A stretch of 64,000 bases of DNA, from the NCBI GenBank assembly GCA_045863235.1, contig BTUM01000029.1, forward strand, positions 1 to 64,000. The letters are read 5' to 3'. Each line of letters opens with the position of its first letter. The first letter of the stretch is position 1. Below the pieces are notes generated by a model. The model was not told where the DNA came from. It made no database searches and worked only from the letters and a program-made list of their open reading frames with translations. This document shows positions 1,079 to 49,107 of this stretch, in pieces. Position numbers and translations under genes: made by a program. Origin of the DNA: Candidatus Xenobia bacterium (lineage in GTDB: Bacteria; Vulcanimicrobiota; Xenobia; Xenobiales; QWHO01).

Positions 1079-2713
1079 GTGGGGGGACTCTTCCGGAAAA
1101 AGCCAGGCCTGCAGCTCTTTCAGCGCATCGGCACGGTCCATGCCAGCATCCTGCGCCCGCGCTATGAGCACCCCGACCTCGAGTTCTATCTGACCCTCGG
1201 CGCGGTCTACGGACGCTTTTTCTACCAGTCGGTCGGCCTGAGCGGGGGCACCGGGAAGGAGGCGGCCGCCTTCATGGAGGCCATCACGCCGGCGCTGGCG
1301 CGCTGGAATGCGCGCTCGCTGCCTGCCCTTTCCGAATTGTATCGGGGCATCGAGCCGATTCTCCCGCTGGTGGGCTTCTCCCCTTACCTGCTGCGCACCC
1401 GGGTGGGGGGCTGGATGCTTGCGGGCATGGGCAACCCGGAGCCCCCCCGCGACCTCTGCCTGGCCCTTGGAGGACCGATGCTCCAGCTGGGCATCGACAT
1501 CCTGGCCAAACGGGTCGACAGCGCCACCTCGGATGCCGACCTGCGAGAGCGTCTGGCCATGGTGCTGGACAGCATGCTGGCCGAGCTCGCCGAGGAGGAA
1601 TCGGGTGGTTGTGTGGTTTTCATCGAGAGCAAGGAGAGCGGGCCCCAAATGCTGGAGGTGGCAGAGCGCAAGACGGCTCTGGCCGACGTCCACGGCACGA
1701 CCTTCGTTTTCACCGCCGAGGAGGACTCGGTGCGGGTGGTCATCGCCGGGGCGCCCCAGCCAGGGAGCCACCCGGTGACCAGCGCAGAATGGCTGAGGAA
1801 GTCCCGGGTGCTACTCAGCGCCAACCAGGGCGAGCTGATCATCGAGGAGCGCGAGGGTGACCGGGTCCGAGGAAGCTTTCAGGCCTCCGGGCCGGAGGGA
1901 ACGCTGGAGTGCGCCGACTTCGAGGTCGAGGTGCAGGACTCTGCCGAGAGCATCACCGACCAGGACCTGCGGGTGCTGGAGGCGACCAGTTCGGGCGACC
2001 TGGCCCGGCTCGAGCAGGCGCTGTCCGAGGGAGCGCCGGTCAACGCCCGCTCGGCCAAGGGCCGGACCGCGCTGGGCTACGCTGCCTACGCCAACCGTCC
2101 CGAGTTGATCGACCGCCTGCTCCAGGCGGGAGCCGACCCCAACCTGGGAGATCTGTGGGGCCTGACCCCGCTCATGGTGGCGGCGACCGAGGGGCACAGC
2201 CAGGTTGTCGGTCGACTGCTGGCGGCCGGAGCCTCGCCCGACCTGCAAACCTCGCGCGGGATGACCGCCCTGATGCTCGCCGCCATGCAGGGCCATGAAG
2301 AGCTCGTAGACGTTCTGCTTCGGGCCGGGGCCAATCCCAACTTGCAGGATAGCGGGGGGATCGCGGCCCTCATGCCGGCCTGTGATCGGGGGCGCATCTC
2401 CCTGGTCCGAAAGCTCCTCGCGGCCGGGGCCGATCCCAATCTGCGCGACCAGGGCCAGGGCACCGCCCTGCTAGGGGCCGCTTTCAGCGGCAACCTGGAG
2501 ATTTTGGAGGCGCTCCTGCAGGCCGGCGCCCGCCACGATCTGGCCGACGGCGAGGGCTTCACCGCCCTGATGAGCGCCGCCCGGGCCGGCCACCCCGCGC
2601 TGGTGGCCCGCCTGCTCGAGGCGGGAGCTGCGCCGCAGACTCGCGATCAGGCGGGCAAGACGGCGCTGGACCACGCCACCAACCCGGAGGTTCGCCGTCA
2701 GCTGGCGCGGTAG
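1079..2713 (+). CDS. Ankyrin-repeat protein with an unknown N-terminal domain
   Basis: About seven G-x-T-[AP]-L-x-x-A-A...LL-x-AGA-x-P-[ND] repeats in the C-terminal half. Start placed at GTG 1079 after AAGGAG; the ORF track starts at 959. Confidence 0.85.
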   Translation: MGGLFRKKPGLQLFQRIGTVHASILRPRYEHPDLEFYLTLGAVYGRFFYQSVGLSGGTGKEAAAFMEAITPALARWNARSLPALSELYRGIEPILPLVGFSPYLLRTRVGGWMLAGMGNPEPPRDLCLALGGPMLQLGIDILAKRVDSATSDADLRERLAMVLDSMLAELAEEESGGCVVFIESKESGPQMLEVAERKTALADVHGTTFVFTAEEDSVRVVIAGAPQPGSHPVTSAEWLRKSRVLLSANQGELIIEEREGDRVRGSFQASGPEGTLECADFEVEVQDSAESITDQDLRVLEATSSGDLARLEQALSEGAPVNARSAKGRTALGYAAYANRPELIDRLLQAGADPNLGDLWGLTPLMVAATEGHSQVVGRLLAAGASPDLQTSRGMTALMLAAMQGHEELVDVLLRAGANPNLQDSGGIAALMPACDRGRISLVRKLLAAGADPNLRDQGQGTALLGAAFSGNLEILEALLQAGARHDLADGEGFTALMSAARAGHPALVARLLEAGAAPQTRDQAGKTALDHATNPEVRRQLAR

Positions 2714-4488
2714 CGCCGGATGAAGACGCCCGGCAGGCGGATGCCCTCGGAGGTCTCGCTCAGGTTGCCCCCCGGCTCGGTGGCGGGGTCCTTGCGGGGC
2801 TCCTGAACCAGGTTGCCAACCTGCTGGGGATAAAGGTGCAGCACGCCTCCGCCCTCGGTCGTGGCCACCACCGAGCGGCCGTCCTGGCCGGGCTGGATGG
2901 CAGAAATGGTGTCCTCGAGCTCGTAGCTCTCCGAAGAGCTGATGCGCTTGGGGTCCCACCACCACAGGCGGGTGTCGTGCTCGCCGGCGGCGGCCACCAC
3001 GGGGCGGCCCTCGGCCATCAGGGGGAGCACGTGCTTGAAGTCGCCGGTCTGCGAGTGCTTCTGGCCCTCGGGATCGGTGACCTCGACGAAGTGAGGCTCG
3101 TGGCGCGCCCAGCTCGGCAGTCCGCCGTCCTGGCGGAACAGGTCGCTCACGGTGGGCGCCTGCACGGCGGCCGCCACCGCAGCCGGCAGGGCGTCCAGGG
3201 CGGGCAGAGTGAAGTTCAGGCAATAGTCCCCGGTGGTAAAGGGCTTGCCGGGCTCGGCCGCCAGGCGGGCCGGGCCGTCGAGCTTGAGGCGGTGGGTCAG
3301 GGTGAGCATCAGGCGATCCCACTTGCCCGGGCCCTCACCGAAGCTGACGAAGTTGGTGGTGCGGCTGGTGATGCGCTCGTTGGCGGGCACGGTGCCCCGG
3401 GGCAGCGCCTGCAAGAGCTCGCCCAGGCTGCCGAATTTCGAGCCATCCTCCGCCAGCTCCACCCCGGAGGCGCTGAAGATGGCCGTGCGACCGTCGGAAA
3501 GGGCGCTGACCACGGCGTCGCCTTTGGTCTCGAAGATCTGCTTGAGACGGAAGGTCTGCAAGTCGAGCCGGTGGACGCGCGTGTTGAACTGGAGATCCCC
3601 CTCCACCACGAAGGCCGAGCGACCGTCGGTCGACAGCTCCACCTGGCCCAGGATGGCCTCCTCGGGCAGCTTGACGCGCTTCACCAGCTTGCCGTCGGTG
3701 CCGTGAACGGCGATCGCAAAGCAACCGGGAGAGCGCTCGCTGAGGAGAAAGCGTCCGTCCTTGAGGGGCGAGACCATCTCCACCCCGTTGCTGGTGGGGG
3801 ACTTGGAGGTCTTGCCGGTGGTCAGGTCGTGCAGGCAGAGCCGGCGGCTGTTGGACTGCTCGGCCACGCGCCCGGCCTTGTACTCGCGGCGCGTGGTCTC
3901 GACGTAGACCAGCTTGTTTCCGCTTAAAATCGGGTCATTGACCGCGTGGTCGCTCTGGTGCAACACCTTGCCGGCGCTGTCGCGGACCTCGATGTTGGAG
4001 CCGTCGAAGGCGGCCAGCTGTCCCTGGGGCAGCTCGAGGAAGCGGGCCCGCAGAAGGGCGGTGGGCTGGTTCCAGGAGGGCGTGAGATCGGGGTGCAGCA
4101 TCAAGAGCTGCCCGTGCTCCGACCAGGTAGCCACGTTCAGGGCCAATCGCCCGTCCGAGAGCACCTGCATGCTGGACTGGTGGCTGTGGTTTTCGGGATG
4201 GATGCTGCCCTGCAGCTCGCCGGTCCGGGCCGAGATGGCCTGGATGCCTCCCCAGTCCTGCACCAGGTAGCGGTCGGCCCCGGGTTGGTACTGCACGCTC
4301 TGGATGTAGTCCTCGGCCGGATGGGTGAACTGCTGGTTGCCCTGAGCGTCCACCACGCTGAGAAACTTCGAGCCGCGCTCGGTGAGGGCCAGGTTGTCCT
4401 TGCCGATGGCGGGCTCCCCGGTGTAGGGAAGCTTGGCGTAGGGCTGGTACCCGCCGCCCTCGCGGGGCATGTAGTGAATGGTCGGCAT
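2698..4488 (-). CDS. Beta-propeller-like (WD40-like) hypothetical protein with the shared C-terminal motif
   Basis: 596-aa ORF with beta-rich blades and WD-like segments (TRLWWWD, ISAIQPGQDGRSVVATTEGGGVLHL). Ends in LSETSEGIRLPGVFIRR. No signal peptide. Confidence 0.65.
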   Translation of the reverse strand: MPTIHYMPREGGGYQPYAKLPYTGEPAIGKDNLALTERGSKFLSVVDAQGNQQFTHPAEDYIQSVQYQPGADRYLVQDWGGIQAISARTGELQGSIHPENHSHQSSMQVLSDGRLALNVATWSEHGQLLMLHPDLTPSWNQPTALLRARFLELPQGQLAAFDGSNIEVRDSAGKVLHQSDHAVNDPILSGNKLVYVETTRREYKAGRVAEQSNSRRLCLHDLTTGKTSKSPTSNGVEMVSPLKDGRFLLSERSPGCFAIAVHGTDGKLVKRVKLPEEAILGQVELSTDGRSAFVVEGDLQFNTRVHRLDLQTFRLKQIFETKGDAVVSALSDGRTAIFSASGVELAEDGSKFGSLGELLQALPRGTVPANERITSRTTNFVSFGEGPGKWDRLMLTLTHRLKLDGPARLAAEPGKPFTTGDYCLNFTLPALDALPAAVAAAVQAPTVSDLFRQDGGLPSWARHEPHFVEVTDPEGQKHSQTGDFKHVLPLMAEGRPVVAAAGEHDTRLWWWDPKRISSSESYELEDTISAIQPGQDGRSVVATTEGGGVLHLYPQQVGNLVQEPRKDPATEPGGNLSETSEGIRLPGVFIRRYRAS

Positions 4489-4494
4489 GAAGTC

Positions 4495-4528
4495 AGTCTA
4501 GGCCAGGGAGCTGAAAGGGAGCTGAAGA
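4495..4528 (-). promoter_or_regulatory. Direct-repeat box promoter (TCTTCAG-N4-CTTTCAG-N10-TAGACT-N6-ATG)
   Basis: Read on the minus strand directly upstream of ATG 4488. Same geometry at 13040, 16112 and 36870. Confidence 0.7.
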
Positions 4529-6090: not shown

Positions 6091-7565
6091 CAGCGCAAAA
6101 TCCCCACCGAAGCAAGCGACTGGTAGGCGATCCCCAGCCCCATCGCCACGATCACGCAGTAGGAAGCCAGCGTGACCCGATCCAGCAACCTCTGCCCGGG
6201 GTAGTAGCGCTCCACCACCTTACCGGCGGTCACCAGCACCACCCCGATGGCGATCAGCACCGAGGCCAGGCCCGCTGAAAAGGCCAGCAAAATCAAAAGC
6301 CCCAGCACGATCTTGTTCAGAGCGATGGCGCTCAGCAGCACCACCAGGGCATCCGGGCAGGGCACCATCCCTCCGCTCACGCCCAGCGTGATCAGGCTGT
6401 AGAGGGTCACCTTCTCGGGCACGTGGTGGGTGTGGTAGCGGCCGCCGTGGGAGTGTCCCATGACCAGGGGCGCGTCCTCGGTCTCGACCGCGGCCACCTT
6501 CCAGCCGGGCTGGGTGAGCAGCTGGCCATCGGCCACCACCTGCACGGGGGCGAGGTAGGCCGACTGGTGCCCGCCCCCCCGCTGCTCGCCCTTCACCGCC
6601 TGCTCGCGGCGGCGCAGGCGAAACAGGTAGACGCCCATCACGGCCACCAGCATGCCCGACACGAAGCCGATCCAGGGCAAGAGGGTCTCGGGCAGGATGT
6701 ACTGGGTGGCAAAAAGCGTGACCAGACCCAGCAAGATCACGCTGAAGGTATGGGTGACGGTGACCACCGCCCCCAGCAGGATGGCCTGGGGGATGGTGCC
6801 CCGCGAGCCGATCAGGTAAGCGGCCACCACCGTCTTGCCGTGGCCGGGGCTGAGTGCGTGCAGGGCTCCCAGCACGAAAGCCAGGCCCAGGGCCACCAGC
6901 AGGAAGCTCTCGCCACTGAGCATGTCCACCATGGGGTTGGTAGAAACCCCGGGCGAGGGGCGGTGGGAGGCGGGGAACGCCAACGTAACCCCGCTCTGCG
7001 AGCGCGAGAACTCGATGCTGGCCCGATCCTGCAGCGCCTCGGCGGCGGTCTTGGGCAGATGGGGGCCGTGGTCGACGGCAAAGCCCTGGCCGCGCACCAT
7101 GACCTCCTTCCAGCCCGGCGTCCCGGTGAAGTTGGTGTCCAGGAACTCGAGCCGGTTGCCATGCTCTTGCACCAGGCCGGGGGGCACGTCCACTTCGAAG
7201 CGGTAGTGCACGAGCATGACGTGCAGCTCGCCCGAGGGGCCCTCCTCCACCTTCAGGTCGGCCTCGGCCACCCGCACCGGCAGCTTGCGGCCGTTGAGGG
7301 TGAAAAAGAGCTCGCTCTCATACATCCGGCTGGCCTGGGGCAGATAGGCGGCCTTCTCGGCCTCGCTGAAGACGCCGTCCTTGTCGGCGTCCAGGCGCTG
7401 CACCTGGCTCAGGGCCGAGACCTCGGGCAGGTACAGGTGAGCATCGACCTCGATGCAAGGCTCGGCCAGGGTGATCTGGTAGGTCACGTCCACGGCCAAC
7501 TCGCCGAAAGGATGGGCCAGCGCCGCCGTCGCCAGCAGCGCGAACCAGAGCAGGAAGCGCTTCAC
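6087..7565 (-). CDS. High-affinity nickel/cobalt transporter (NicO/RcnA family) with an exported N-terminal domain
   Basis: Signal peptide ending AHP, LHALSPGHGKT motif, His-rich loop HSHGGRYHTHH, GMVPCPDAL, multiple TM helices. Confidence 0.85.
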   Translation of the reverse strand: MKRFLLWFALLATAALAHPFGELAVDVTYQITLAEPCIEVDAHLYLPEVSALSQVQRLDADKDGVFSEAEKAAYLPQASRMYESELFFTLNGRKLPVRVAEADLKVEEGPSGELHVMLVHYRFEVDVPPGLVQEHGNRLEFLDTNFTGTPGWKEVMVRGQGFAVDHGPHLPKTAAEALQDRASIEFSRSQSGVTLAFPASHRPSPGVSTNPMVDMLSGESFLLVALGLAFVLGALHALSPGHGKTVVAAYLIGSRGTIPQAILLGAVVTVTHTFSVILLGLVTLFATQYILPETLLPWIGFVSGMLVAVMGVYLFRLRRREQAVKGEQRGGGHQSAYLAPVQVVADGQLLTQPGWKVAAVETEDAPLVMGHSHGGRYHTHHVPEKVTLYSLITLGVSGGMVPCPDALVVLLSAIALNKIVLGLLILLAFSAGLASVLIAIGVVLVTAGKVVERYYPGQRLLDRVTLASYCVIVAMGLGIAYQSLASVGILRW

Positions 7566-10500
7566 GACGTGGGGGCGCGCCGCTTCTTGACCATGACCCC
7601 GCTGAACACGACCCGGTCGGCCTCATCGCGCAGGATGGCCGCGCCCGTGTCGGGGCGGATCTCAAGCTTGGCCACCTCGGCGATGTTGTCCAGGCGCTTT
7701 TGCAGCTCCTCGGGAGTCACGCCCTTGGCCTGCTCGGCGGCGTAGATGTTGCTGACCAGGTCGGCCGCCTGGGCGCTGGTCTGGCCCAGCTCGATCAGCT
7801 TGCGATAGATCTCGGCCAGGGTGGGCAGCTGGCCCGAGGAGACGTCGGGCAGGGTGACCAGCATCCCCCAGGTTCGCCGCATCAGGCTGCGGCCGTCCGT
7901 GGAGCTGACCTGGCAGAGCTGCTCGAAGGCCTTGCGACGGTCCTCCAGGCTGGTGGGGCCGACCGGCTGCTTGAGGGCCTCGAGCAGCCCCAGCGCCTCG
8001 CGGGGAGCCACCCCCGAAGCACGGAACTGGGGATACATGTCCAGCGCCTCGGAGGGCAGGTCTTTGAGGCTCAGGTGAGCCGTCTGGCAGACCTCGACGG
8101 ACTCGTGGTGGCGCAGGAGGTCCTCGAAGACGCCGCTCCAGCGCAGCATATCCTTGGGGGGGTCAAGCAGCAATTCGAGCACGGGCTTTGACTCCGTGAG
8201 ACCCCAGCCTGTGAGGCCGAGATTGCGGGTGACCAGCTGGCGCACCTCAGCATTCGGCAGGCCGGCCTGCTCGCCGGCGTAGAGCAGCTTCTGGTGCACC
8301 TGGGGCAGCCAGGTCAGGCGGTAGATGCTGGCCTGCTGGAAGGAGCCGACCTCTTGCAGCGCCTCGATGCGCTTCCTGTAGTCGCCGCCGGTGGCCTCCA
8401 GGTCGCCGAGCAGGGGGGCCGCGTGGGCGGGGTAGAGCTCGAGCAGCCGGGCGAAGGCCTGCACGGCCTCGGTACGACCGGCCAGTTTCTGGTTGTAGAG
8501 GGCCAGGGCCGGCTCGCCTGGCAGCTTGCGATCGGCCAGCGTTTTCGCCAGCAGCTCCAGCTCGTCTGGCTGGCCGTGCTGGTCCAGCGCAGCCGTGAAG
8601 CCCCGGGCCAGGTCAGAGCTCAGGGAGTCGCCATACCCGCCCAGCTGGCCAACCAGCCGGCTGTGGGCCGCCAGATGGTCGGCCGGAGCATTCTGCACGG
8701 TGGCCAGGGCCACTCCGGGAGGCACCGCCGCGCCCACCATGGCGGCAAAGTGCTTTCGTTGCTCAGGCTTGCCCAGAAGCTCGTTGGACCAGGCTCGGGC
8801 GGCCGTGCAGGCATGGCGCTCGCTCAGCCCTCCGGTCAGGCTCTTGAGCTCAGCCGCCGCCCGGTCGATCCGGGCGCCTTGCTCGACCTCCTTACGCAGG
8901 GCCTCGAGCACGGCCGCATTGCGGCCATACTCGTAAGCCAGCTCCAACGTCTCGAAGGCTTGCTTGCGCTCGGAGAAGCTGGTGCGGCCCAGGTCGCGGT
9001 GCAGCTCCCTGGAGGTGGCCACAGCCTGATCCGGCTCCCACTGCCCGGTGATCAGCGAGGCCAGGAAGGCGCGCTCGTCGGGATGAGCCCCGAGCTCGGC
9101 GAGCTGGGCGAAGACCGGCCGGAGAACTTCCCGATTCCAGTTCTGCGTCTTCCACACGCCGGTCAGCTGCTGCTTGACCTCGGCCAGCCGGGCCCCGTTC
9201 TGCAGCGGAGCGGCCAGGGCTCGATAGAACGAGGCCGCAAAATCGTGGTTCTTGCCCGGATCTCCCTGATAGTAGCGGCTCAACCCGCCCACCTCGACAA
9301 AGGCTTCGTAGCGCTCGGTGAGGGTGGTGGAGCCGGCCGGCTCCTGCATCAGCTCCAGCAAACAGATGGCCGCCTCGGGAGACTGCTGCTCTTGGATCAG
9401 GCGGGCAAAGATCTCGCTGGCCTCCACCTTGCCGGCCAGCTTCTCGCCCCAGTAGCCGGCCGCTCTGGCGGCCACGTCGCCCCTGAGCTGGCGCGCTCCG
9501 ACCGCGTCGGCCACCCGGGCCAGGGTCAGCCCGGCGGTATGGCTCGAGACTCCGCCCGACAGGGCCTTCTCCTGAGCCTCCTGGAAGGCGGCCGCCACCC
9601 GATCATCGAGCAAGTGGCCCGCTTTGCCCAGCCCCTTCAGCCCCTGCAGGCGGCCCAGGTCGCCGCTGGAGCGGGCCCGCTCCAGGGCAGCCACGGCCAC
9701 GCTCGGCTTCACACCGGCCTGCAGCTGTTCGAGCAGGGCGGTGAACTCGGGCCGGGGGCCGGCCAGATGCTCGGCCACGTGGTCGAAGGCTTTGCAGACC
9801 TCGGCCTCGGCCCATTGCCCCACCGCCTTCTGCAGGCTCTGGAGCTTGGCCACCGCCGCCTGGCTGGTCTGGCCCGCTCCCACTTCGGAGCGGTAGGCCT
9901 GGAACTGGCTCTCGCGCACCGGCAGGCTCAGGGAGGCGAGCTCAAGCTCGTGGAAGGCCTGGATGCGCTGCTCGACGCGCGTATTGCCGGCCGGCTCGGC
10001 CACCAGGTTGGAGGCGTGCACGGCCGAGCCGACCTCGTAGCGCTGGCCCAGCAGGCCCAGATACAACTCCCGTCGGGGGCTCTTGCCCAACCCGGCCAGG
10101 TGCTCGAGAGCCTGACCGGCGTCCTGACCGTGGTAGCCGTGGTAGAGCCCGTTCCACAGGCTGGTGAGGGCGGCGGTGGCCTCCTTGACGGTGGCCCCGC
10201 TCGCAAGCTGGGCCCGCAGGGCCTCGGCGTGCTTCACGGCCAGCTCGACCTTCTGGCCGGGACCCTGGTAGTTCGAGTTCAGCCCCCCCGAGCCCAGGAA
10301 GGCCTCCAGTCGCTCGGTCAGCGTGCTGGAGCCGGCCGGCACGGCCAGGGCCCGGTACAGCTCAACGGTCTGAGGAGCGGTGAACCGGCTCTGCTCGTGC
10401 AGACGCGAGAGCACCTCCACCTCTTCGCGCTTGCCGTTCAGCTCCGCACGGAACAGCTCGGCCAGTGGCGCTGCCACGACGGGGCGCTGCCCGAAAGCCT

Positions 10501-13006
10501 GGCACAGACGGCCCAAAGTGGCCGGGTCGGGCTGCTCGATGGCCTGGAAGGCCTGCACTTCCTTGTCGTGCAGGCTGCGCCCGGCCTTGCCCAGCCCCAG
10601 CAGGGGCTCAAGCCGGCCGCCCTGGGCCCGATCCAGGGTGGACCCGGCCACCCGGGCGGGAAAGCCGGCCTTCAGCAAGCTCACGAAGCGCTCGCGCTCG
10701 CGCGGCCTATCCGTGGTGTAGGTCAAAGCGCAGGCTCCCGCGTCGCACTCGAGCCCCTTGACGAGACTCACCAGGGGAGTCAGGCAGGCCGGGTCCTCGC
10801 CACCCTCCAGGGCGCCCTTCACGGCGCCGATCAGGGCCAGGCGCACGGCCTGGTCTCCCAGCTCCTCCAGGCCGAGCTTGAAGGCGGCCTGGATTCGTTG
10901 CGACTGCCCCTGGCGCGGATCGGTCAGGGCCCGGGCGCACTCGATGGACGGATCCACCTCGCCGGTGACCTTGAGGATGCGCTGCAAGCAATCCAGGGCC
11001 GACTCGTTGCCGGCCTGCTCGGCCATGAAGCTGAAGGCGACGGGCACCTGATCGTAGTGATACTGACGCAACAAGGTGCTCTGGACATCGGTCATGCGGC
11101 CCTGCACCGTCTCCAGGCTGGCGCCCGTCTGCAAGAGCGCGCCCATGGCCTGCAGGGCCGAAGCCAGACCCTGCTTCTGGGCGCTCAGACCGCCGTAGTT
11201 GGAGTTGAAAGCGTGAAGGCCATCCAGCGCTTTCAGCCGCTGGTCCAGGGTGGTGGAGCCCGGCCAGCCTTCGATGGTGTGCAGAACCGACACCGTCTGC
11301 TCGCCCGTGCCGCGCTCCACCAGACCGGCCGCCAGGTCGCTGCGCGCGGGGTGGTTCTTCCAGTCGTCCAGGACGGGCCTGGGCTCGGCCAGCTTCGCCT
11401 TGTAGACCGAGCCGGCCAGCTTCTCGAGCTGGGCCAGTCCCCGGGGGTCGCGCTCGAGCACCGCCAGAAACTGCGGGCCAACCTTGGGGGCGCGCTCGCG
11501 CAGGGCGGCCAGCACGCCGACGCGCTCGGGGTGGTCGGCGATCGAGTCGAGCAGCGGCCCGATGCCAGCCGGAGGGACGCGGGCCTCGAGCAGGCGGCAC
11601 ACCCCGTCGAGACGGTCGGGATGGCTGGCGGCATAGGCCGCGGGAGCCGCCTCAGGGCTCTGCCCCAGCGCCTCCACCAGGCGCTGGGCCCGCTTGACGA
11701 CCTCGGACGGGGGCCTGCCGGCGGCGAGATCGGCCTGCACCAGCCCCCAGGCGAGGTTCTTGCCCGCCAGCGAGCCGGGAATCTTCCCCAACAGGTCGAT
11801 GCGCTCGGTCTGCGACAGCTTGCCAGCCGGCTCGGCCAGCTTGCGGGCCACCTCCAGCGCGTCCGAGGCGCTCCCCTGGAAGACCAGGGTCGTGAACAGT
11901 CCGATCTGAGCCGGGGTGGCCGGACAGAGCGAGCCCAGAGCCCCGAAGACCTCGTTGAAGCCCTCGTTGTAGTTGCGAGCCAGCGCGTTGCTCAGCTCGA
12001 CGCAGTTCTTGCGCGCCTCGCCCGAGCTCAGCCTGCTCTCGATCATGCCGTCGAAAGCCTTGCCCAGAAGCGAGAAGTCTGGATTGCCAGAGTGATAGCC
12101 TTGGAAGTAGTGGATGTCTTCCATCAGCCCCAGTCGGTCGCCCAGCTCGCCCCGGGTGGTGAGAGCCAACCCTTTGGCGAGCTTGCTCAGGTCGTGCTGT
12201 CCCAGCACCCGCCGCAGCGAGGCGTAGCTGCTCGCCTCAGGACCGCTCTCGAAGCGCGCCAGGTCGGCGGCCACCTCCTCTTTGCGAGGGTAGAAAGCGC
12301 ACAGATACTGCGCCACCGCCACCGGGTCGCCGGCCGCCGCCCGGGCCTTCCCGAGCCGCTCCTCGAGCTTGCCAAGATCCACCTGGCCCGGGTCGAGCCG
12401 CTGCACGGGTAGCTGCTGGAAGCGCACCGTGACGGGGGCCGGCTGCTCTTCGTGGGAGGGCCAGCCGGTGGTGAGGTAGTTGTAGGCGCCATAGGCATCG
12501 GTAGGGAAACCGCCCACCGTGAAGCTCAGGCCCCTGGAGGCCAGCTCCTTCAGCTGCTCGCCCAGCTCAGGCTCGGCCAGGGAAGCGGTGGAGCCCTGGC
12601 CGTGCAGGGCTTCGAGCTTGGCCAGGTCGGCCTCCCCGGTGAGAGGCAGGGCGGTCGCTTCGGGACTGGTCTTCACCTTGAGGCGCGCGTCGCCCATCCA
12701 ACTGGCGGCCTTCTCGGGCTTGACGGTCTTGTTGGGAGCCATGAACCAGAGCCGGAAGCGGCGCCGGACCTGGTATTCGACCGGGATGCGGGCCAGCCGC
12801 TCGGCCAGGGGCAGGCTGGCCAGGCCCGGCAGGGCGCTCAAAGTCGCATGATGAGCCTGCTGGAGGGGATCCACCTCGACGGAGGTCCGGCCGGGCTGGC
12901 CACCCTGCACCTCGGCCAGGTCCTGGGGCTGCTCGGAAGCCACCTGGCGCGGGCTGACCGCGGACAGGGGGAGAGAATGTGCCGGCAAGGAGGTGGGACG
13001 GATCAT
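7562..13006 (-). CDS. Giant (1814 aa) alpha-helical repeat protein with the shared C-terminal motif
   Basis: Long ORF with recurring PAGSTTLTER-x-EAF...GGL-x2-[NY]YQG blocks. Ser/Pro-rich N-terminus. Ends in LRDEADRVVFSGVMVKKRR. Confidence 0.8.
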   Translation of the reverse strand: MIRPTSLPAHSLPLSAVSPRQVASEQPQDLAEVQGGQPGRTSVEVDPLQQAHHATLSALPGLASLPLAERLARIPVEYQVRRRFRLWFMAPNKTVKPEKAASWMGDARLKVKTSPEATALPLTGEADLAKLEALHGQGSTASLAEPELGEQLKELASRGLSFTVGGFPTDAYGAYNYLTTGWPSHEEQPAPVTVRFQQLPVQRLDPGQVDLGKLEERLGKARAAAGDPVAVAQYLCAFYPRKEEVAADLARFESGPEASSYASLRRVLGQHDLSKLAKGLALTTRGELGDRLGLMEDIHYFQGYHSGNPDFSLLGKAFDGMIESRLSSGEARKNCVELSNALARNYNEGFNEVFGALGSLCPATPAQIGLFTTLVFQGSASDALEVARKLAEPAGKLSQTERIDLLGKIPGSLAGKNLAWGLVQADLAAGRPPSEVVKRAQRLVEALGQSPEAAPAAYAASHPDRLDGVCRLLEARVPPAGIGPLLDSIADHPERVGVLAALRERAPKVGPQFLAVLERDPRGLAQLEKLAGSVYKAKLAEPRPVLDDWKNHPARSDLAAGLVERGTGEQTVSVLHTIEGWPGSTTLDQRLKALDGLHAFNSNYGGLSAQKQGLASALQAMGALLQTGASLETVQGRMTDVQSTLLRQYHYDQVPVAFSFMAEQAGNESALDCLQRILKVTGEVDPSIECARALTDPRQGQSQRIQAAFKLGLEELGDQAVRLALIGAVKGALEGGEDPACLTPLVSLVKGLECDAGACALTYTTDRPRERERFVSLLKAGFPARVAGSTLDRAQGGRLEPLLGLGKAGRSLHDKEVQAFQAIEQPDPATLGRLCQAFGQRPVVAAPLAELFRAELNGKREEVEVLSRLHEQSRFTAPQTVELYRALAVPAGSSTLTERLEAFLGSGGLNSNYQGPGQKVELAVKHAEALRAQLASGATVKEATAALTSLWNGLYHGYHGQDAGQALEHLAGLGKSPRRELYLGLLGQRYEVGSAVHASNLVAEPAGNTRVEQRIQAFHELELASLSLPVRESQFQAYRSEVGAGQTSQAAVAKLQSLQKAVGQWAEAEVCKAFDHVAEHLAGPRPEFTALLEQLQAGVKPSVAVAALERARSSGDLGRLQGLKGLGKAGHLLDDRVAAAFQEAQEKALSGGVSSHTAGLTLARVADAVGARQLRGDVAARAAGYWGEKLAGKVEASEIFARLIQEQQSPEAAICLLELMQEPAGSTTLTERYEAFVEVGGLSRYYQGDPGKNHDFAASFYRALAAPLQNGARLAEVKQQLTGVWKTQNWNREVLRPVFAQLAELGAHPDERAFLASLITGQWEPDQAVATSRELHRDLGRTSFSERKQAFETLELAYEYGRNAAVLEALRKEVEQGARIDRAAAELKSLTGGLSERHACTAARAWSNELLGKPEQRKHFAAMVGAAVPPGVALATVQNAPADHLAAHSRLVGQLGGYGDSLSSDLARGFTAALDQHGQPDELELLAKTLADRKLPGEPALALYNQKLAGRTEAVQAFARLLELYPAHAAPLLGDLEATGGDYRKRIEALQEVGSFQQASIYRLTWLPQVHQKLLYAGEQAGLPNAEVRQLVTRNLGLTGWGLTESKPVLELLLDPPKDMLRWSGVFEDLLRHHESVEVCQTAHLSLKDLPSEALDMYPQFRASGVAPREALGLLEALKQPVGPTSLEDRRKAFEQLCQVSSTDGRSLMRRTWGMLVTLPDVSSGQLPTLAEIYRKLIELGQTSAQAADLVSNIYAAEQAKGVTPEELQKRLDNIAEVAKLEIRPDTGAAILRDEADRVVFSGVMVKKRRAPTS

Positions 13007-13039: not shown

Positions 13040-13073
13040 CCTACAGACTTCTTTCAGAGCATGGTGCTATGGT
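13040..13073 (+). promoter_or_regulatory. Direct-repeat box promoter (CCTACAG-N4-CTTTCAG-N10-TATGGT)
   Basis: TACAG 13042-13046, CTTTCAG 13051-13057, TATGGT 13068-13073. Lies between the divergent 1814-aa gene and the PilZ gene. Confidence 0.6.
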
Positions 13074-13174: not shown

Positions 13175-13543
13175 ATGAGCGTGGTGCGCAGCAAAGACCG
13201 CCGGAGCGCAGAGCGCCAGGCGGACCGACGGGTCTATGCACGGGCCCACAAGATCGTCCCGGTGTGGTATCGCCACGAAGGAAAAGACCGGCGTGGATGC
13301 GCCCTGGACCTCGGCACCGAAGGGGCCTGCCTGATCGCTGAGGTGGCTTTCGCAGCCTCCGAGGAGTTCGAGCTGGTCCTGCAACTGGAGGAGGAGCTCG
13401 AGGTGCGAGCCTCCGCCCGCGTGCTGTGGAGCGACCCGGCGCCGGATCAGAAGACCCACATGCTGGGCGTGAGCTTCAAGTCCTTCAAGTCGGGGGACAA
13501 GGCGGCGCTGGGGAGCTGGGTGCAGCGTTACGGACGCGTTTGA
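13175..13543 (+). CDS. PilZ-domain protein (c-di-GMP receptor-like)
   Basis: RxxxR motifs (DRRSAER, ERQADRR) and DLGTEGA (D-x-[SG]-x-x-G), followed by ARVLW...GVSF. Confidence 0.8.
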   Translation: MSVVRSKDRRSAERQADRRVYARAHKIVPVWYRHEGKDRRGCALDLGTEGACLIAEVAFAASEEFELVLQLEEELEVRASARVLWSDPAPDQKTHMLGVSFKSFKSGDKAALGSWVQRYGRV

Positions 13544-21024: not shown

Positions 21025-21278
21025 GGGATCGATCTTGCCACCTCACGCCCAAAAAGGGCTGAAACGCTTGCCTCGGCTCTGACCGGGGTTTGCCTGGCCA
21101 GGTAGCCTCCCGAACCGGGTGCAGCCCCGTCCGCCAGGAGCAACCTGACATCGTAGATCAGATCGGCGATTACTTTGGCGCCGCGTTCCGATTCGGAAAC
21201 GCACGGCTGGTTCATCAGCTGGAAGCCTGAAAGCAAACGGCACCCGGTGCCGCCTGCGTCCTGGGTCGCGAGCTCTTG

Positions 21279-36869: not shown

Positions 36870-36903
36870 CCTTCAGCAGCCTTTCAGACCGGTCCCCTAA
36901 GCT
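36870..36903 (+). promoter_or_regulatory. Direct-repeat box promoter (CCTTCAG-N4-CTTTCAG-N10-TAAGCT-N6-ATG)
   Basis: TTCAG 36872-36876, CTTTCAG 36881-36887, TAAGCT 36898-36903, ATG 36910. Confidence 0.7.
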
Positions 36904-36909: not shown

Positions 36910-38466
36910 ATGATCGGTGCCCTGTCGCCCATGGCCAACTTTGCCAGCTTACCCATTCGGGCGACCGCATCTCGCCCGGAGCAGGGCCCGCCGGCCGAGG
37001 CGAGCCCCGAGGTGGAGTGGCTGCGCAGCAAGGTGCCCGGAGGCAAGCCCGAAGAGCTGCTCGGCCTCTACCAGTTGGGGCGCAAGCTCTTCTCCGAAGA
37101 CCAGCCCCAGCGCGACCAGATGCTGGCCGAGAGCCTGCAACGGCTGCACGAGCGGATCGACCAGCCGAAGGGCTTCATGGCCGACGTCCCGCGTAACGAG
37201 CGCGTCCACATCTACGAGCGGCTGGTCGAGGCCTGCCCTCCGAAGCCCGAGTGGGTGCTCGACCACTCCGACGTCTTTAGGCCCCTGGAGCATCTGCACA
37301 AGCTCGCCAACCTGAGCGAGGAGTCGGTCCAGGGCTTCCAGGTCGGTCCCAGCGGGAACTACACCTTCGTGCAAAAGCCATCTGGGCAGCCCATCTCGCT
37401 GACCCGGGCGGTGGACGAGTACTGCGAGCAGCTCGATCGCATCACCCATGCCCGAGGCCGCAAGTCGGCCGCCCAGGATTGGAGCGACGACCACTCCGCC
37501 TGGAGCGCGGTCAACCTCGAGCACAACGCGCTCGGTAACGATCCTGAGCAGGTGGCCACCTTCCGCGAGCTGCTCAGCTTCTACCAGTGCCCCTGGGCCT
37601 CGATGGCCGTGCTGCAAACCTCTCAGGGGGTTGCCGAGCAGCGTCGAGCGGAGTATTTCCAGGAGCTCGAGCAGCGCATGGTCACCCGGCGCGACGAGAA
37701 GGGCTGGCCCCAGAGCCACCTCGAGGCCAACGCCGAGGGCGGCTTTGTGCACCATGTGAGCCGCTGGGTGGCCCTGGCGGTGACGGCCCGACGCGAGGGA
37801 GAAAGTCTGGCCGCCAGCGAGCAAGACCTGGAGGCGGCCGCCCGGAGCATGGACCGCGACCTCCGCCGGTGGTATCCGCTGGAGACCCTGGCGGCCGCGG
37901 TGACGATCCGGACCCCCGAGGAGAGCACCACCAGCGCGCTCGGTCGCTTTCAGAGCGCCTACCAGCTCTTGCAAGAGCAGCCCGGGATGAGCGCCTCCAC
38001 GGCCTTTGACATGGCTCGCCAGATCGGCTCGCAAAACCCTGGCTTCCTGGACGACCTGGCCGAGTGCAGCGCCTACCTGCGCTCGCTGGGTCTACCCAGG
38101 GAGCACACCGCCGCGGCCCTGGAGCACGCTTTGCAGGCCGACAAGCAGGGCCGAAGCCCGCTCGAAGCGCTGCGCGGCTACCTCAAGGGCTTCGAGCTCA
38201 CGGGCGAGTTGGACGGCCTGGACAAAGTCCGCCAGCAGATCGAGGAAGGCGTCCAGACGGGGCGCCTGCAGGGCAGCTCCGAGGAGCTGATGTCACGCTT
38301 TCTCTGGCGCCTCGAGCAGCTGCAGCTTCTCACCAGCGACCGTCGCGGCTCGACTCAGCAGGCCCTGAGCGAGCTGTTCGAAGGGCATACGGCCGGCCTT
38401 CAGGTGGGCCAGGTGGGTCAGAGCTTCGTTCTGGGCGGCACCCGTCTCAAGCTGAAGAGCCGATGA
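36910..38466 (+). CDS. Alpha-helical hypothetical protein with the shared C-terminal motif
   Basis: 518 aa with a Ser/Pro-rich N-terminus. Ends in VGQVGQSFVLGGTRLKLKSR. Confidence 0.7.
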   Translation: MIGALSPMANFASLPIRATASRPEQGPPAEASPEVEWLRSKVPGGKPEELLGLYQLGRKLFSEDQPQRDQMLAESLQRLHERIDQPKGFMADVPRNERVHIYERLVEACPPKPEWVLDHSDVFRPLEHLHKLANLSEESVQGFQVGPSGNYTFVQKPSGQPISLTRAVDEYCEQLDRITHARGRKSAAQDWSDDHSAWSAVNLEHNALGNDPEQVATFRELLSFYQCPWASMAVLQTSQGVAEQRRAEYFQELEQRMVTRRDEKGWPQSHLEANAEGGFVHHVSRWVALAVTARREGESLAASEQDLEAAARSMDRDLRRWYPLETLAAAVTIRTPEESTTSALGRFQSAYQLLQEQPGMSASTAFDMARQIGSQNPGFLDDLAECSAYLRSLGLPREHTAAALEHALQADKQGRSPLEALRGYLKGFELTGELDGLDKVRQQIEEGVQTGRLQGSSEELMSRFLWRLEQLQLLTSDRRGSTQQALSELFEGHTAGLQVGQVGQSFVLGGTRLKLKSR

Positions 38467-44500: not shown

Positions 44501-45160
44501 ATGGGGAACAACCGGTTCCAGCTCTACTCGCTGCTGGCGATGGCGGTGGTCTGTCTGGCCATCATCGGGGTCGCCAAGAGCATGATGAAGCCCCAGACCT
44601 ACCCGGGAGACCGCACCGAAATGCGCGACTGCCGCTGGTGCGGCGGCACCGGTGAAGGGGGCGACGAGCGGGAGATGGCCATGCAGGGCGAGGGGATGCC
44701 TCCTCGCGGCGGCGGGGGCGGAGTGTGTCCTGGCTGCCGGGGCAAGAAGAAGCTCAGCGTGATCGTCCCCGGCCCCAACCACCCGGCCGTAGTGCGCGGC
44801 AGCGTGCGCGACGTCAAAGCGATGGGGGCTGAGGCCACAAGCCCGGAAGCGGCCGCGCTGCTGGCCTTCCACGAAAATCGCAGCCCGGGCCCGGTCAAAG
44901 GCGCGGTGGGGGGAGCGAAGGTCGTGTTCGACAACGGCAGCAAGAAGGTGGAATACACCGTGCCCGCCAACGGCAAGATCAAGACGATGCTGGTCCCGGG
45001 GCACTACAAGGTGACCGTGACGGCGGAGGGCTTCCAGGATTACCACGATGAGGTCGACGTAGCCGCCCGGCGCGAGCCCATCTGGGACGAGCGCGCCCGG
45101 CTCATCACCGAGGAGTCGGTGGCCGACCAGACCGAGGTACTGTTCCTGCTCAGCCGCTGA
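44501..45160 (+). CDS. Membrane-anchored protein with a DnaJ-type zinc finger and a carboxypeptidase-regulatory-like beta domain
   Basis: N-terminal TM helix, CRWCGGTG and CPGCRG, VRGSVRD...LVPGHYKVTVTAEGF. Confidence 0.6.
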   Translation: MGNNRFQLYSLLAMAVVCLAIIGVAKSMMKPQTYPGDRTEMRDCRWCGGTGEGGDEREMAMQGEGMPPRGGGGGVCPGCRGKKKLSVIVPGPNHPAVVRGSVRDVKAMGAEATSPEAAALLAFHENRSPGPVKGAVGGAKVVFDNGSKKVEYTVPANGKIKTMLVPGHYKVTVTAEGFQDYHDEVDVAARREPIWDERARLITEESVADQTEVLFLLSR

Positions 45161-45743
45161 ACGGAAAGTGCAGCCCCTGCTTCTCGGCCCGCTCAGCATC
45201 GAGCTCGAAGACCGAGATGGCGTGAATGCAGTCGGAGTTGAAGCCGCACTTGAGGCCCGCCCGCACGGTCTCGAAGGCCAGGCCCGGATAATACAGGGGG
45301 CCGGTCACGAGACTCTGCAGGGCGTGCTGGTTTTCATGGTCCATCACCCGCTGGCTGAGCTTGCGCGAAGCAAAGCCCAGGCAGCCGGGGGTGAAGGCGG
45401 TGGTGTCCTCCAGGAAGGTCTTGCCGATCCAGCGGGCCACCCCGCGCGAGTTCTCATACAGGGCAAAGCCGTACTGCCCGGTACGCCGCTCGCCAGTAGT
45501 ACCCAGCGAGATCAAGAGACTGACCGTATTCTGCACGATAGTGGTTGGGTTCACGCAGGTCACAGCCACCGCCAGGGCCAGGTCTTTCGTCTTGTCGACG
45601 GCGTAGTCGCGGGCTTTCTCGCCCAGCGAGCGGAAGTCGGGCGGGGCGTCCACGCTCCAGTTGCAGTCGACTTCTGGAGCGCTCGCGGGAGCCTGAATGG
45701 GCATGCGGGAAGGAGCGCAGGCGGAGAGGCTCTGAATCTGCAT
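45150..45743 (-). CDS. Hypothetical protein with a zincin-like HExxH motif
   Basis: DHENQHALQ...FELDA. TACAAT-N6-ATG upstream supports the 45743 start. Ser/Pro-rich N-terminus. Confidence 0.55.
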   Translation of the reverse strand: MQIQSLSACAPSRMPIQAPASAPEVDCNWSVDAPPDFRSLGEKARDYAVDKTKDLALAVAVTCVNPTTIVQNTVSLLISLGTTGERRTGQYGFALYENSRGVARWIGKTFLEDTTAFTPGCLGFASRKLSQRVMDHENQHALQSLVTGPLYYPGLAFETVRAGLKCGFNSDCIHAISVFELDAERAEKQGLHFPFSG

Positions 45744-46827: not shown

Positions 46828-46848
46828 AGCCTCAGGAGCTTTGAAGGG

Positions 46849-49107
46849 TTACTTCTGCTCGCTGCTCTTGTCGCCGGCGATGACCATGTTGTCGAGGTAG
46901 AACCCGTCCGCGGTCTGGCTCGAGTCGGCATTCAGGCGGAAGCGCAGCTGCACGTCCTGGCCGTCGTACTTGGAGATGTCCACCGAGCGGCTGCTCCAGT
47001 CGGAGGAACCGGTGAAGCCAGCCAGGCGCTCCCAGTTCTGCCCGTCCGTCGAGCCTTCCACGTAGACGTTGTCGTAGCGGCGCTCGAGGTCGAACTTGGT
47101 GTCGAAGATGAGCGTGCTGCCCTGGAACTGCTGCAGCGAGATCGGCCGGGTGGTCAACGAGGTGTTGGCCCGATCGGCGTAGTTCCCGCTGGGGCTGTCG
47201 GTCCAGACCTTGCCGCGACCCTCGGCGTCCACCTGGGCCCAGCTATCGGCCGGGATAAAGTTCTCGGCGCCGCCGTCCATGTTGTCCTCGAAGGCCAACT
47301 GGGCGGGAGGCAGGTTCACGCTGCCGGTGCGGATCTCGGAGGCGTTGCCCACGTTGTCGCGCACCTTGAGGGCGTAGTACTTGGTCCGCTCCTGGCCGGA
47401 GGGAACCACCGAGAAGCTGGCCTGCTCCAGAGTGCCCGTGGCGCTGGGCTTGGCCGTGGCAACCAGCTCGGCGTTGGAGAAGGACACCTGGCCTTCGGCC
47501 GCCTCGCCGTCCACGATGGGCTTGTCGGAGACGCGCAGCTCGTAGCTGCCCGCCTGGCCGCACCAGCCGTCGTCGCCGGTGGCGGTCCACTGCAGGGTGG
47601 CGCCGTTGGCGCGGGCCGAGATGGCGCGCAGGTCGTTGGGAGCGGCCGGGGCTACCGAGTCGTTGTCGAGGGCGTTGGCCGCGTTCAGGCGTCCGCCGCT
47701 GACCACCTTGCCGTCGAGCTGGGACAGCTTGTCCGAGCCGTTCATCAGGCGGGCCTTGATCTCTTCGTTGGTGGCGTTGGGATAGGCGGCGGCGATCAGG
47801 CCGGCCACGCCGGACACGTGCGGAGTGGCCATCGAGGTGCCGCTCATGTCGCCGTAGCTGCCCTTGCTGACCGGCACGGTGGACCAGATGTCCACGCCCG
47901 GCGCGGCGATGTCCACCGAAGTGGCGCCGAAGCAGGAGAAGTCAGCGAGCTGGTCGTTGCGGTCGGTGGCCGCCACGGCCACGTTGTTGGGCAGGTCGTA
48001 GCTGGAGGGGTAGTGCGGGCTGGTGTCGTTGTCCGAGCCCGAGTTGCCCGCGGCCATGATGTGCAGGGCCGGGCTGTTCTTGAAGGCGTCGTAGATGCCC
48101 TGATTGAACTGGCCGCCGCCCCAGCTGTTGGAGGTGATGCGGGCGCCCATCTGGGTGGCGTAGTTGATGCCGCGAATGATGCTGGCGGCGTCGGTCGAGC
48201 CCTGGTCGGAGAAGATCTTGACCGGCATGATGGTGGCCTGCCAGTTCACGCCCACAACGCCCTGGGCGTTGTTGCCGCTGGCGCCGATGGTGCCCGAGCA
48301 GTGGCTGCCGTGGGAGTGTCCGTCCATGGGGTTGCCGTTGTTGGCCAGGGCGTTGTAGCCGTGCACGTCGTCGATGACGCCGTTGCCGTCGTTGTCGATG
48401 CCGTCGCCCGGAATCTCGCCAGGGTTGGTCCAGATGTTGTCCTTCAGGTCTGGGTGGTTGAAGTCGGCGCCGGTGTCGATCACGGCGATGATGGGGCCAC
48501 CCGCGTCGGTGCGCGCGCCGGTGCTGACCGTCCAGGCCTCGGGAGCGTCGATGTCAGCGTCGGCCGTGCCGTTGTCCTGGCCGCTGTTGTTCAGGCCCCA
48601 GAGGCGGGTGTCCAGGTCGTCGGGCAGGTTGACGCCTTCTTTGGGCTGGGAGCCATCCAGCGTGAAGGTGTGGTTGGGCTCGACGTAGGCAACCCGGTCG
48701 TCCTTGGCCATGACGGCCATCGCCTCGGCGGTGGACATCCCGGCCGGCAGCTTGAGCTGTACCAGCTCGCCGTCAGCGTTCTTGAACAGGTTGGGAAGAT
48801 TGAACTTGTGCAGGGTGGAGGCGCCATACTCATTGGCGAAGCCGTCCACGTCCATCAGGCCGTTCTCGCCGGCCTTCAGCTTGACCAGCACCTGGCCTTC
48901 CACGTGAGGTCCGAGCTTGGACTCGAGCGATTTGGCCTCGGAGGCCACCGAGGCCTGCATGGCGGCGAGGTCCTGGCGCGAGGGCAGCGAGCTCGCCTCG
49001 ACGCTGGCGCCGCGGCCGTCGGCCGGGCTCGAAGGGGCGGACGGGGCCGCCGACTGGGGGCGACTGAGTGAGCTCAGTCCGCTCTGGTGGTGGATCTGGG
49101 AAATCAT
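46849..49107 (-). CDS. S8 subtilisin-like serine protease with prodomain, FN3-like and C-terminal beta-sandwich domains
   Basis: IAVIDTG (Asp), HGSHCSG (His), AAGN, SGTSMATPHVSG (Ser). ATG 49107 after GGGAGG. No signal peptide. Confidence 0.95.
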   Translation of the reverse strand: MISQIHHQSGLSSLSRPQSAAPSAPSSPADGRGASVEASSLPSRQDLAAMQASVASEAKSLESKLGPHVEGQVLVKLKAGENGLMDVDGFANEYGASTLHKFNLPNLFKNADGELVQLKLPAGMSTAEAMAVMAKDDRVAYVEPNHTFTLDGSQPKEGVNLPDDLDTRLWGLNNSGQDNGTADADIDAPEAWTVSTGARTDAGGPIIAVIDTGADFNHPDLKDNIWTNPGEIPGDGIDNDGNGVIDDVHGYNALANNGNPMDGHSHGSHCSGTIGASGNNAQGVVGVNWQATIMPVKIFSDQGSTDAASIIRGINYATQMGARITSNSWGGGQFNQGIYDAFKNSPALHIMAAGNSGSDNDTSPHYPSSYDLPNNVAVAATDRNDQLADFSCFGATSVDIAAPGVDIWSTVPVSKGSYGDMSGTSMATPHVSGVAGLIAAAYPNATNEEIKARLMNGSDKLSQLDGKVVSGGRLNAANALDNDSVAPAAPNDLRAISARANGATLQWTATGDDGWCGQAGSYELRVSDKPIVDGEAAEGQVSFSNAELVATAKPSATGTLEQASFSVVPSGQERTKYYALKVRDNVGNASEIRTGSVNLPPAQLAFEDNMDGGAENFIPADSWAQVDAEGRGKVWTDSPSGNYADRANTSLTTRPISLQQFQGSTLIFDTKFDLERRYDNVYVEGSTDGQNWERLAGFTGSSDWSSRSVDISKYDGQDVQLRFRLNADSSQTADGFYLDNMVIAGDKSSEQK

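Follow-up and report, generated by a model that had tools for sequence, protein, structure and literature searches.

A promoter box and a C-terminal tag shared by dispersed orphan genes of a Candidatus Xenobia bacterium, with a flagellum-derived export system as their possible outlet

Box and tag, from the window to the genome

The stretch of DNA analysed here, called the window, comprises positions 1 to 64,000 of contig BTUM01000029.1 (C29), part of the 8.36-Mb genome of an uncultured Candidatus Xenobia bacterium from wastewater (assembly GCA_045863235.1; G000 where genomes are compared), which is 97.6% complete in 166 contigs. By a lineage marker, the nearest named records bear the labels Ca. 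Eremiobacteraeota and Vulcanimicrobiota, and UBP9, Xenobia and Ca. Bruticola occur among other relatives. The window harbors four genes for proteins of no known family that carry a common motif at their carboxy-terminus (the tag), as well as copies of a promoter element made of two direct repeats and a -10 part (the box). According to the original prediction, made from the window alone, both signals fall on the same orphan genes, and our analysis confirms this observation and shows that it scales to the whole genome. Boxes were scored with a matrix of the form TTTCAG-N5-TTTCAG-N10-TAnnnT and a cut of 16 bits, tags with an iterated matrix and a cut of 12 bits. The 6942 genes were called with a self-trained hexamer model, and start codons are approximate; box counts are over 6932 genes and tag counts over 6873 proteins.

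The first tagged gene (2698..4488, minus strand) encodes 596 residues with no Pfam family and no PDB sequence match. Its tag lies at residues 573-594 (2707..2772, minus strand; 18.3 bits), and its box (4495..4527, minus strand; 30.4 bits), with two TTCAG repeats at an 11-bp period followed by TAGACT, stands 6 nt before the ATG, a leaderless arrangement. A paralog on contig C86 is also tagged and boxed, and in the ortholog of genome G004 (47% protein identity) the spacers have changed, yet the tag is conserved, as are the two repeats, the -10 and the 38-nt distance. Three congeners have copies of the segment 4529-4620, which lies between this box and a Uma2 gene, at other places in their genomes (81-87% identity) and with no box. 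The second gene (7562..13006, minus strand; 1814 residues, no Pfam or PDB match) has a tag of 30.1 bits at residues 1788-1809 (7580..7645, minus strand) and a box score of 8.3, under the cut, and is counted as unboxed; its paralog on contig C10 lies in an operon behind a boxed, tagged gene. As predicted, it is divergent from a box (13041..13073, plus strand; 26.8 bits) that faces, at 133 nt from its start, the gene of an untagged single-domain PilZ protein (13175..13543, plus strand; PF07238, E 2e-8; tag score -30.7). PilZ and c-di-GMP had been proposed as an input of the regulon; we drop this part, since the PilZ gene is downstream of a box and thus a target, and nothing makes c-di-GMP an input.

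The third gene (19957..21024, minus strand; 355 residues, no Pfam family) has the highest tag score of the four, 43.0 bits at residues 321-342 (19999..20064, minus strand), and all seven of its database homologs end in the tag. Its leaderless box (21032..21064, minus strand; 24.3 bits; 39 nt to the ATG) is degenerate in the second repeat. The fourth (36910..38466, plus strand; 518 residues, no known family) combines a leaderless box (36871..36903, plus strand; 27.5 bits; 38 nt to the ATG) with a tag of 22.8 bits at 38395-38460. The boxes of the first and fourth genes have the exact TTCAG-N6-TTCAG sequence. Both signals are indeed missing from gltB, gdhB, malQ, nth and nei, whose box scores range from -8.5 to 3.4 and whose tag scores are at most -16.8, and none of the remaining C-termini of the window, which has 53 called genes, scores above -10 for the tag. 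Exact box repeats with a poor -10 part (-6.3) occur once more (49197..49228, plus strand; 22.6 bits), facing a gene at 49234-49611. PDB sequence searches with three window proteins and with an alignment of the pilin-like family described below gave no match, nor did an Rfam search of the window.

Genome-wide, the TTCAG-N6-TTCAG spacing, with its 11-bp period, occurs 112 times, against 3 to 27 occurrences for each other spacing from 5 to 30, and TAnnnT sits 10 nt beyond the paired repeats. Other perfect 5-mer repeats placed in the same geometry occur at most three times each, compared with 54 for the box repeat. The matrix finds a box 5′ of 355 of the 6932 genes; of 4293 control windows placed inside genes, it picks out 2. 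Because 188 of these boxes lie 37-42 nt from the start codon, we regard them as leaderless promoters; they account for 92 of the 117 tagged boxed genes and 96 of the 238 untagged ones. For the tag, a loose pattern derived from the four window proteins matched 120 of the 6873 C-termini, compared with a single one of 5376 internal windows; the converged matrix matched 187 C-termini and 1 of 5220 internal control windows. The 187 tagged proteins form 116 families spread over 83 contigs, with normal GC content at third codon positions; one of them, an FHA protein on contig C37, is probably a false positive that remains in the counts.

Box and tag are far from independent: a box precedes 117 of 187 tagged genes and 238 of the 6745 remaining ones (p 3e-109; odds ratio 46). 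Could such an association result from paralog expansion or from gene-start calling? The largest tag family has 22 members and the gene starts come from a home-made caller, which would favor that view. When we restricted the comparison to operon-leading genes, 97 of 155 tagged genes were boxed versus 216 of 4248 others (odds ratio 31), and with one gene taken per tag family about 71 of 116 were boxed. Against an artefact stand the number of families itself, with 53 of the 89 singleton families boxed, the preservation of the box in the G004 ortholog despite its altered spacers, and a held-out check: 12 proteins carry an internal copy of the tag, 11 of them without a C-terminal copy, and 9 of these 11 are boxed. 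Even under the strictest control, in which untagged leading genes with the same type of N-terminus were compared, the odds ratio stays at 4-5: 102 of 161 tagged genes versus 94 of 359 others were boxed (4.9). We give an artefact practically no credence.

As for the protein that binds the box, the Pho-like 11-bp repeat period points to the OmpR/PhoB winged-helix type, which is the most likely binder judging from this geometry. Pho boxes and related OmpR/PhoB sites likewise consist of two direct repeats with an 11-bp period beside the -10 (PMC4415409). One may therefore ask whether the regulon is a Pho-like starvation response that merely includes the tagged genes among its targets. Apart from the shared period, this is what 4 phosphate-releasing proteins among the 64 of 238 boxed untagged proteins submitted to a Pfam scan would suggest. 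On the other side, 37 of those 64 have no Pfam family, tagged orphans make up 117 of the 355 boxed genes (about one third), no match to PhoU or to one PstB signature motif was found in the 97.6% complete genome, and no OmpR-type regulator is boxed. The repeat is also different (TTTCAG), with some 350 mostly orphan targets, and a Pho-like TGTCAC repeat was found at a single site, before another regulator. We consider a Pho-like regulon very improbable, and the boxed genes are not mainly phosphate-scavenging or other metabolic genes.

That single site is the sole genomic TGTCAC-N5-TGTCAC-N10-TAGACT, of the same geometry as the box, and the OmpR-type regulator behind it (C6:55737-56399) is likely autoregulated. 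The high-affinity phosphate system may be missing altogether from this 8.4-Mb genome, given the lack of PhoU and PstB signature matches, and regulators with receiver, winged-helix and BTAD-like domains are expanded in it (at least 13 genes). A STAND-BTAD regulator behind a boxed gene was considered as master regulator and dropped, with matches in only 2 of 16 genomes of one family (f2). The repeat of HilA boxes is TTTCAT. HilA, in Salmonella SPI-1, is an OmpR/ToxR-type activator of type III secretion system (T3SS) genes (PMC5122947).

A link of the unboxed tagged genes to sigma-28 did not hold. The element CGAA, 7-12 nt before the start, is found in 14 of 70 unboxed tagged genes, but with 11.7% of the 3869 other leading genes carrying it too, it is a general promoter class; the FliA-like sigma gene of this genome is itself unboxed. 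More fully written as AGG-N18-CGAA and located 9-11 nt before the start, this second class is present in about 12% of the 3869 genes and in none of the 117 boxed tagged genes.

The two ends of the encoded proteins

The tag follows the consensus G-x-G-V/I-x-E-x4-V-x-V-G-G-V-R-V/L-R/K-R/K-R, about 21 residues that end at a median of 3 residues before the stop. An AlphaFold model of an alignment of 81 tags predicts three strands forming a beta-meander, with a predicted local distance difference test (pLDDT) score of 81-83 in the core block. No family or fold was matched when the tag was compared with Pfam (86 tagged proteins, 82 outside the window and 4 inside), Atlas clusters and PDB folds. A search of 1.84 billion representative proteins returned 10 matches; three are repeat proteins and were discarded as false, and in seven the motif is C-terminal, four of these being named as Eremiobacterota or 'bacterium CPR1'. 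In one database protein (P0004) the C-terminus bears the tag twice in tandem.

The N-termini turned out to be distinctive too. By a crude hydrophobicity proxy, in which Tat signals were not scored separately, a signal-peptide-like start is found in 0.5% of tagged proteins, 6% of boxed untagged proteins and 25% of the others. Tagged proteins and boxed proteins start instead with M-x-I/V followed by S/P/A-rich sequence, position 3 being I or V in 62% of 92 tagged leaderless proteins versus 14% of 4149 others. A classifier trained on tagged N-termini reached an area under the curve (AUC) of 0.87 in family-grouped cross-validation and of 0.81 on boxed untagged proteins that it had not seen. The result holds when leaders are matched: with a Shine-Dalgarno sequence, 40.6% of 69 boxed untagged proteins were recognised versus 8.6% of 1038, and among leaderless genes 48.7% of 39 versus 16.7% of 180. 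A short motif, D/E-x-V/F-x-L/I-S/G near residue 28, occurs in 22 of the 187 tagged proteins, in 26 of 226 that are boxed and untagged, and in 129 of 5848 others, shuffled sequences giving about 1.5%. We regard the shared N-terminus as the likelier export address, with the C-terminal tag marking a subclass. By construction of the 95th-percentile cut, about 310 more proteins that are neither boxed nor tagged exceed it.

The window contains some of these additional proteins as well as the hydrolases without signal peptides of the original prediction. A subtilase with a MAM-like domain (46849..49107, minus strand; PF00082), unboxed (-6.0) and untagged (-31.0), has an S/P/A-rich N-terminus in place of a signal peptide, scores at the 99.5th percentile and belongs to the 310; the exact repeats at 49197..49228 face away from it. 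A clostripain-family peptidase without signal peptide (34000..35664, plus strand; PF03415) is unboxed (1.8) and contains a weak internal tag (35485-35547, plus strand; 18.9 bits). An unboxed and untagged orphan of 197 residues (45150..45743, minus strand; no Pfam family) reaches the 99.7th percentile of the N-terminus score, and another unboxed orphan (62099..63196, plus strand) has the N-terminal D-x-V-x-L-S motif at residue 33. Two CHAP-domain amidase-like proteins are encoded at 18518-19285 and 58794-59699, the former with a low-complexity M/Q/G-rich N-terminus that resembles those of two boxed genes on contig C61. Small antitoxin/PIN-toxin-like pairs, judged from sequence starts only, lie at 32515-33119, 40561-41237 and 49666-49872.

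A flagellum-derived export apparatus and its pilin-like genes

The original prediction called for a search of the genome for delivery loci and for boxes on them. A flagellar-type export apparatus does exist, and its operon is unboxed. On contig C27 the order is flgB flgC fliE fliF fliG fliG fliH fliI fliJ slt fliK rod fliM fliN fliN fliO fliP fliQ fliQ fliR flhB flhA, and contig C74 adds flgF, flgG, flgJ, an FlhB-tail protein and the FliA-like sigma gene. The genome thus has the export gate, ATPase, MS-ring, C-ring and rod of a motility flagellum. Flagellin gave no match in the genome at its stated completeness, and tblastn searches with FlgD, FlgK, FlgL, FlgA, FlgH, FlgI, MotA, MotB and FliC of relatives found nothing, while the FlhA control matched. 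With hook queries, rod paralogs and one further weak gene were the only matches, and the sole MotA/ExbB match lies in a TonB operon. An injectisome is told from a flagellum by a secretin (SctC) with the export genes and by the lack of FlgB, FlgC and FliE. In this genome the latter three are present, and the three secretins are away from the export genes, two of them in type II secretion system (T2SS) or pilus operons; no translocon family was recognised in the export locus. By the features tested, the encoded system appears to be neither a motility flagellum nor a canonical injectisome.

Located 3′ of flhA are a conserved gene for 104 residues, three identical genes for an 81-residue helical protein and a gene for a 473-residue protein with the same C-terminal domain, which also bears the N-terminal motif described above. 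Compared by model features, the 81-residue protein scored 0.91, 0.90 and 0.88 against Atlas HrpA/HrpE pilin clusters, and in the nearest two (0.91 and 0.90) 23-24% of the members carry HrpA_pilin. The third tandem copy has a box here and in two relatives (L089 and L090), with drifting spacers. Among 32 sites before pilin genes of relatives, 7 score at least 16 bits; 5 of these are AT-rich stretches without repeats that we did not count. The family is present in 47 of 61 genomes, and G007 has a diverged copy at the same locus. In RNA libraries from four studies of bioreactors, sludge and wastewater, contigs cover the pilin genes, flhA and flhB, which attests presence, not level, and gives no transcription start sites. 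A ranking of pilin expression (deepest contig in three of four runs) was dropped, since genes cannot be ranked by contig depth, in which the three identical copies add up. Matches to the pilin family in two records named Acidobacteriota (L125:10001-10198 and L129:10001-10135) have no export genes within 10 kb.

Five soluble proteins carry the FlhA cytoplasmic domain (contigs C80, C3, C1, C106 and C107; L156-L160), two of them fused to an FliG N-terminal domain. Together with the three chaperone-like TY-Chap1 proteins of this genome they are candidate receptors of the tag. TY-Chap1 was found in 4 of 4 genomes of family f1, 15 of 16 of f2, 3 of 3 of f4 and 0 of 19 of f3, and shows no regular linkage to tagged genes. 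A role as obligatory receptor is weakened by four tagged f3 genomes without a match, and the range that it shares with the box comes down to one or two losses. The search for the CesT family is uninformative, having given no match even in control genomes. Searched with one marker family each, which falls short of proving absence, TssC (type VI secretion), VirB4 (type IV secretion system, T4SS), WXG100 (type VII secretion) and a contractile sheath were not found in the genome. It contains at least seven PilB-like ATPases, one of the family lying behind a boxed gene.

We compared 61 genomes, including the families labelled f1 (4 genomes), f2 (16), f3 (19) and f4 (3). FliP is encoded in 59 and flagellin in 16, and two or more FliP copies are found in 15 of the 16 flagellin-bearing genomes versus 6 of the other 45. 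The export gene order of C27 recurs in five relatives from four families (G013, G007, G060, G046 and G056). In a tree of 13 FliP sequences the export clade is split from the flagellin-linked copies with support of 97/92, two long rows of unsure place being on the export side, and a tree of nine FlhA sequences agrees; both trees contain sequences of this phylum only. A congener carries flagellin, hook cap and junction parts in a second system. The strict box pattern is present in 32 of the 61 genomes (f1 4/4, f2 16/16, f4 3/3, f3 1/19), and the tag model is positive in 14, with at least 104 copies in the five genomes of the genus and 1-21 elsewhere; all 14 are pilin-positive. One genus (g4: G007:C10, which is L139, G019 and G023) has an extra lone FliP on a long branch, outside flagellar clusters, and the motility flagellum looks fragmented in G004:C163 and G013:C1, with an FliK of 899-1091 residues and scattered genes.

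These findings also allow that the regulon is real and the flagellum-derived system has another job, the tag being an intracellular module (for oligomerisation, degradation or localisation) or a docking signal for the T2SS or the type IV pilus. The unboxed export operon, the differing ranges of box and machine, the C-terminal and at times internal position of the tag, and the seven PilB-like ATPases, with one of the family behind a boxed gene, are consistent with such a role. We think it unlikely, given that T2SS and pilus routes need Sec signal peptides, which the proxy sees in 0.5% of tagged proteins. Moreover, the T2SS and pilus operons that we saw are unboxed, enzymes that are normally exported bear the disordered N-terminus instead, and one pilin copy is boxed in three species.

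A possible programme of protein delivery

We lean, by a modest margin of confidence, towards a regulon of substrates for a flagellum-derived secretion system that is used against other cells. A single activator would bind the tandem TTTCAG repeats in place of a -35 element, an activating role suggested by their geometry, and would switch on some 350 dispersed promoters, which the housekeeping sigma factor would read and about half of which are leaderless. Most products would be substrates of the type III export apparatus, which lacks motor, hook cap and flagellin, and the 81-residue Hrp-pilin-like protein, whose genes are at hand, may build a thin filament. The disordered N-terminus (M-x-I/V, S/P/A-rich, often D-x-V-x-L-S/G near residue 28) would address the export gate, and the three-strand tag with its basic tail could serve some 190 large orphans as an additional module for docking or sorting. 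In the manner of an attack phase in predation or parasitism, the programme may place proteins on or inside a cell that has been contacted, and would probably add lipid-, peptide- and nucleic-acid-processing enzymes and uptake systems.

Several observations weigh against this proposal. No regulator was found, none of the 14 OmpR-type genes being boxed, and the export operon, the other seven scored pilin-family genes and the five FlhA-domain paralogs are all unboxed. One boxed pilin copy in eight is within chance for one genome, and its conservation extends to three close species only. The 81-residue protein has no Pfam or PDB sequence match and is modelled as one long helix, so that the pilin match is a lead only. 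FliK of the export system scores high for the N-terminus (8 of 8 at or above the 81st percentile), yet cytoplasmic FliM does too and FlgB, FlgC and FliE score low, hence the score largely measures disorder. Type III signals are usually N-terminal, whereas the tag is C-terminal. No toxin domain was recognisable among the scanned tagged proteins, no chaperone or immunity family recurs among 300 neighbours of tagged genes, and neither an outer-membrane ring nor a translocon was identified. The genome also encodes a T2SS and a type IV pilus system. Family f3 has the machine, and the pilin in 19 of 19 genomes, but the box in 1 and the tag in 4; f2 has the box in 16 of 16 but the tag model in 1, although inspection by eye of 21 boxed genes of G013 showed diverged tags in 3. 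Export and injection are themselves inferred, not observed.

The recognisable members of the regulon leave room for a milder use of the same export machine, in which the proteins are released, or kept on the cell's own surface, to bind or digest particles and dead biomass, with no injection. Among the 82 tagged proteins scanned outside the window we identified 11 beta-propellers, 2 MAM-like proteins, 1 DUF885 and 1 FHA protein, and the 64 boxed untagged proteins include 4 acyltransferases, 2 clostripains and other peptidases, a desaturase, a lytic transglycosylase, a TonB receptor and an extracytoplasmic-function (ECF) sigma factor. One further boxed protein has an ATLF peptidase-like domain in a below-cutoff match (E 3e-5) that we did not accept as a toxin assignment. 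Binding domains of the propeller and MAM/CUB types (11 and 2 of 82), together with peptidases, acyltransferases, endonuclease I, a phosphodiesterase, the transglycosylase and the TonB receptor, would suit release or surface display, as would the lack of identified translocon or immunity genes. Against it, 67 of the 82 tagged proteins have no Pfam family, unlike usual scavenging enzymes, a T2SS is available for plain secretion, and throughout the phylum the locus retains a pilin-like subunit in several copies. We rate release or display as rather improbable.

Delivery into other cells has partial parallels in known systems. The Hrp-type T3SS regulons of plant pathogens, with their hrp box or PIP box, also comprise scattered orphans under one promoter motif, disordered S/P-rich N-termini and a small helical pilin (HrpA or HrpE), which the 81-residue protein may resemble; by contrast, the apparatus described here is flagellar (FlgB, FlgC, FliE, FliG, FliM, FliO and rod) and has no secretin in the cluster, and the regulon differs in the 11-bp period of its box and in its C-terminal tag. 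The T3SS* of Myxococcus xanthus, which works with the Tad-like Kil system, is a secretin-less type III core used in contact predation, with effectors unknown (PMC10433427); it has Sct-type parts and no needle, whereas our system keeps flagellar rod genes, a pilin-like subunit and definable candidate substrates. In Lysobacter enzymogenes OH11, also a predator, a flagellin-less flagellar apparatus exports toxic proteins (PMC7688988). That remnant still exports FlgD and has three named substrates; here a phylum-wide clade, without FlgD and with hundreds of candidate substrates, exists beside a motility flagellum. The latter (system A) has a homologous export gate, C-ring and rod, but includes FlgD, hook, FlgK, FlgL, FlgA, FlgH, FlgI, MotA, MotB, FlgM and flagellin, and its FliP and FlhA form a separate clade.

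Portable C-terminal modules on unrelated proteins are familiar from the basic tails of T4SS substrates, from XVIPCD and from the C-terminal domain of type IX secretion. The tag is like them in this respect, and differs in that VirB4 was not found. A C-terminal signal that targets rod and hook subunits to the flagellar gate is documented (PMC10936197). The tag, as a predicted beta-meander, is unlike a helical D0 end. For the related Ca. Eudoremicrobiaceae predation has been proposed, and flagellar and T3SS matches are listed without a decision between them (PMC9259500). The one cultured member of the phylum is reported to have neither flagella nor a flagellin gene (PMC9758169), and the accessible part of PMC11484240 mentions neither secretion nor flagella. 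In the literature searched, which mostly left subscription titles outside its reach, we found no description of the box, the tag or a second export system of the phylum.

The interpretation in the original prediction, a co-regulated programme of proteins delivered to another cell, is partly supported: the shared box and tag on orphan genes stand and a candidate delivery machine exists elsewhere in the genome, while export, cell entry and a predatory or parasitic lifestyle stay hypothetical. A bolder view, that this is a second independent conversion of a flagellum into an injection device, with a rod-anchored Hrp-like pilus and a two-part address on 200-500 proteins under one activator, across much of the Vulcanimicrobiota and beside a dispensable motility flagellum, is one that we regard as possible and hold tentatively. 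If true, it would be among the largest bacterial effector repertoires and the killing machine of an uncultured predator. What the analysis offers is a parts list, made of a promoter, two protein signals, an export machine, a putative filament subunit, 187 tagged genes and about 240 more that are boxed, for the ways in which other cells may be attacked by an uncultured lineage that is abundant in sludge, gut and sea. An intermediate between flagellum and secretion system that is still alive throughout a phylum would bear on the origin of injectisomes, a portable tag at the C-terminus would be a type III sorting signal of a new kind, and the tagged orphans constitute a large pool of unexplored protein activities.

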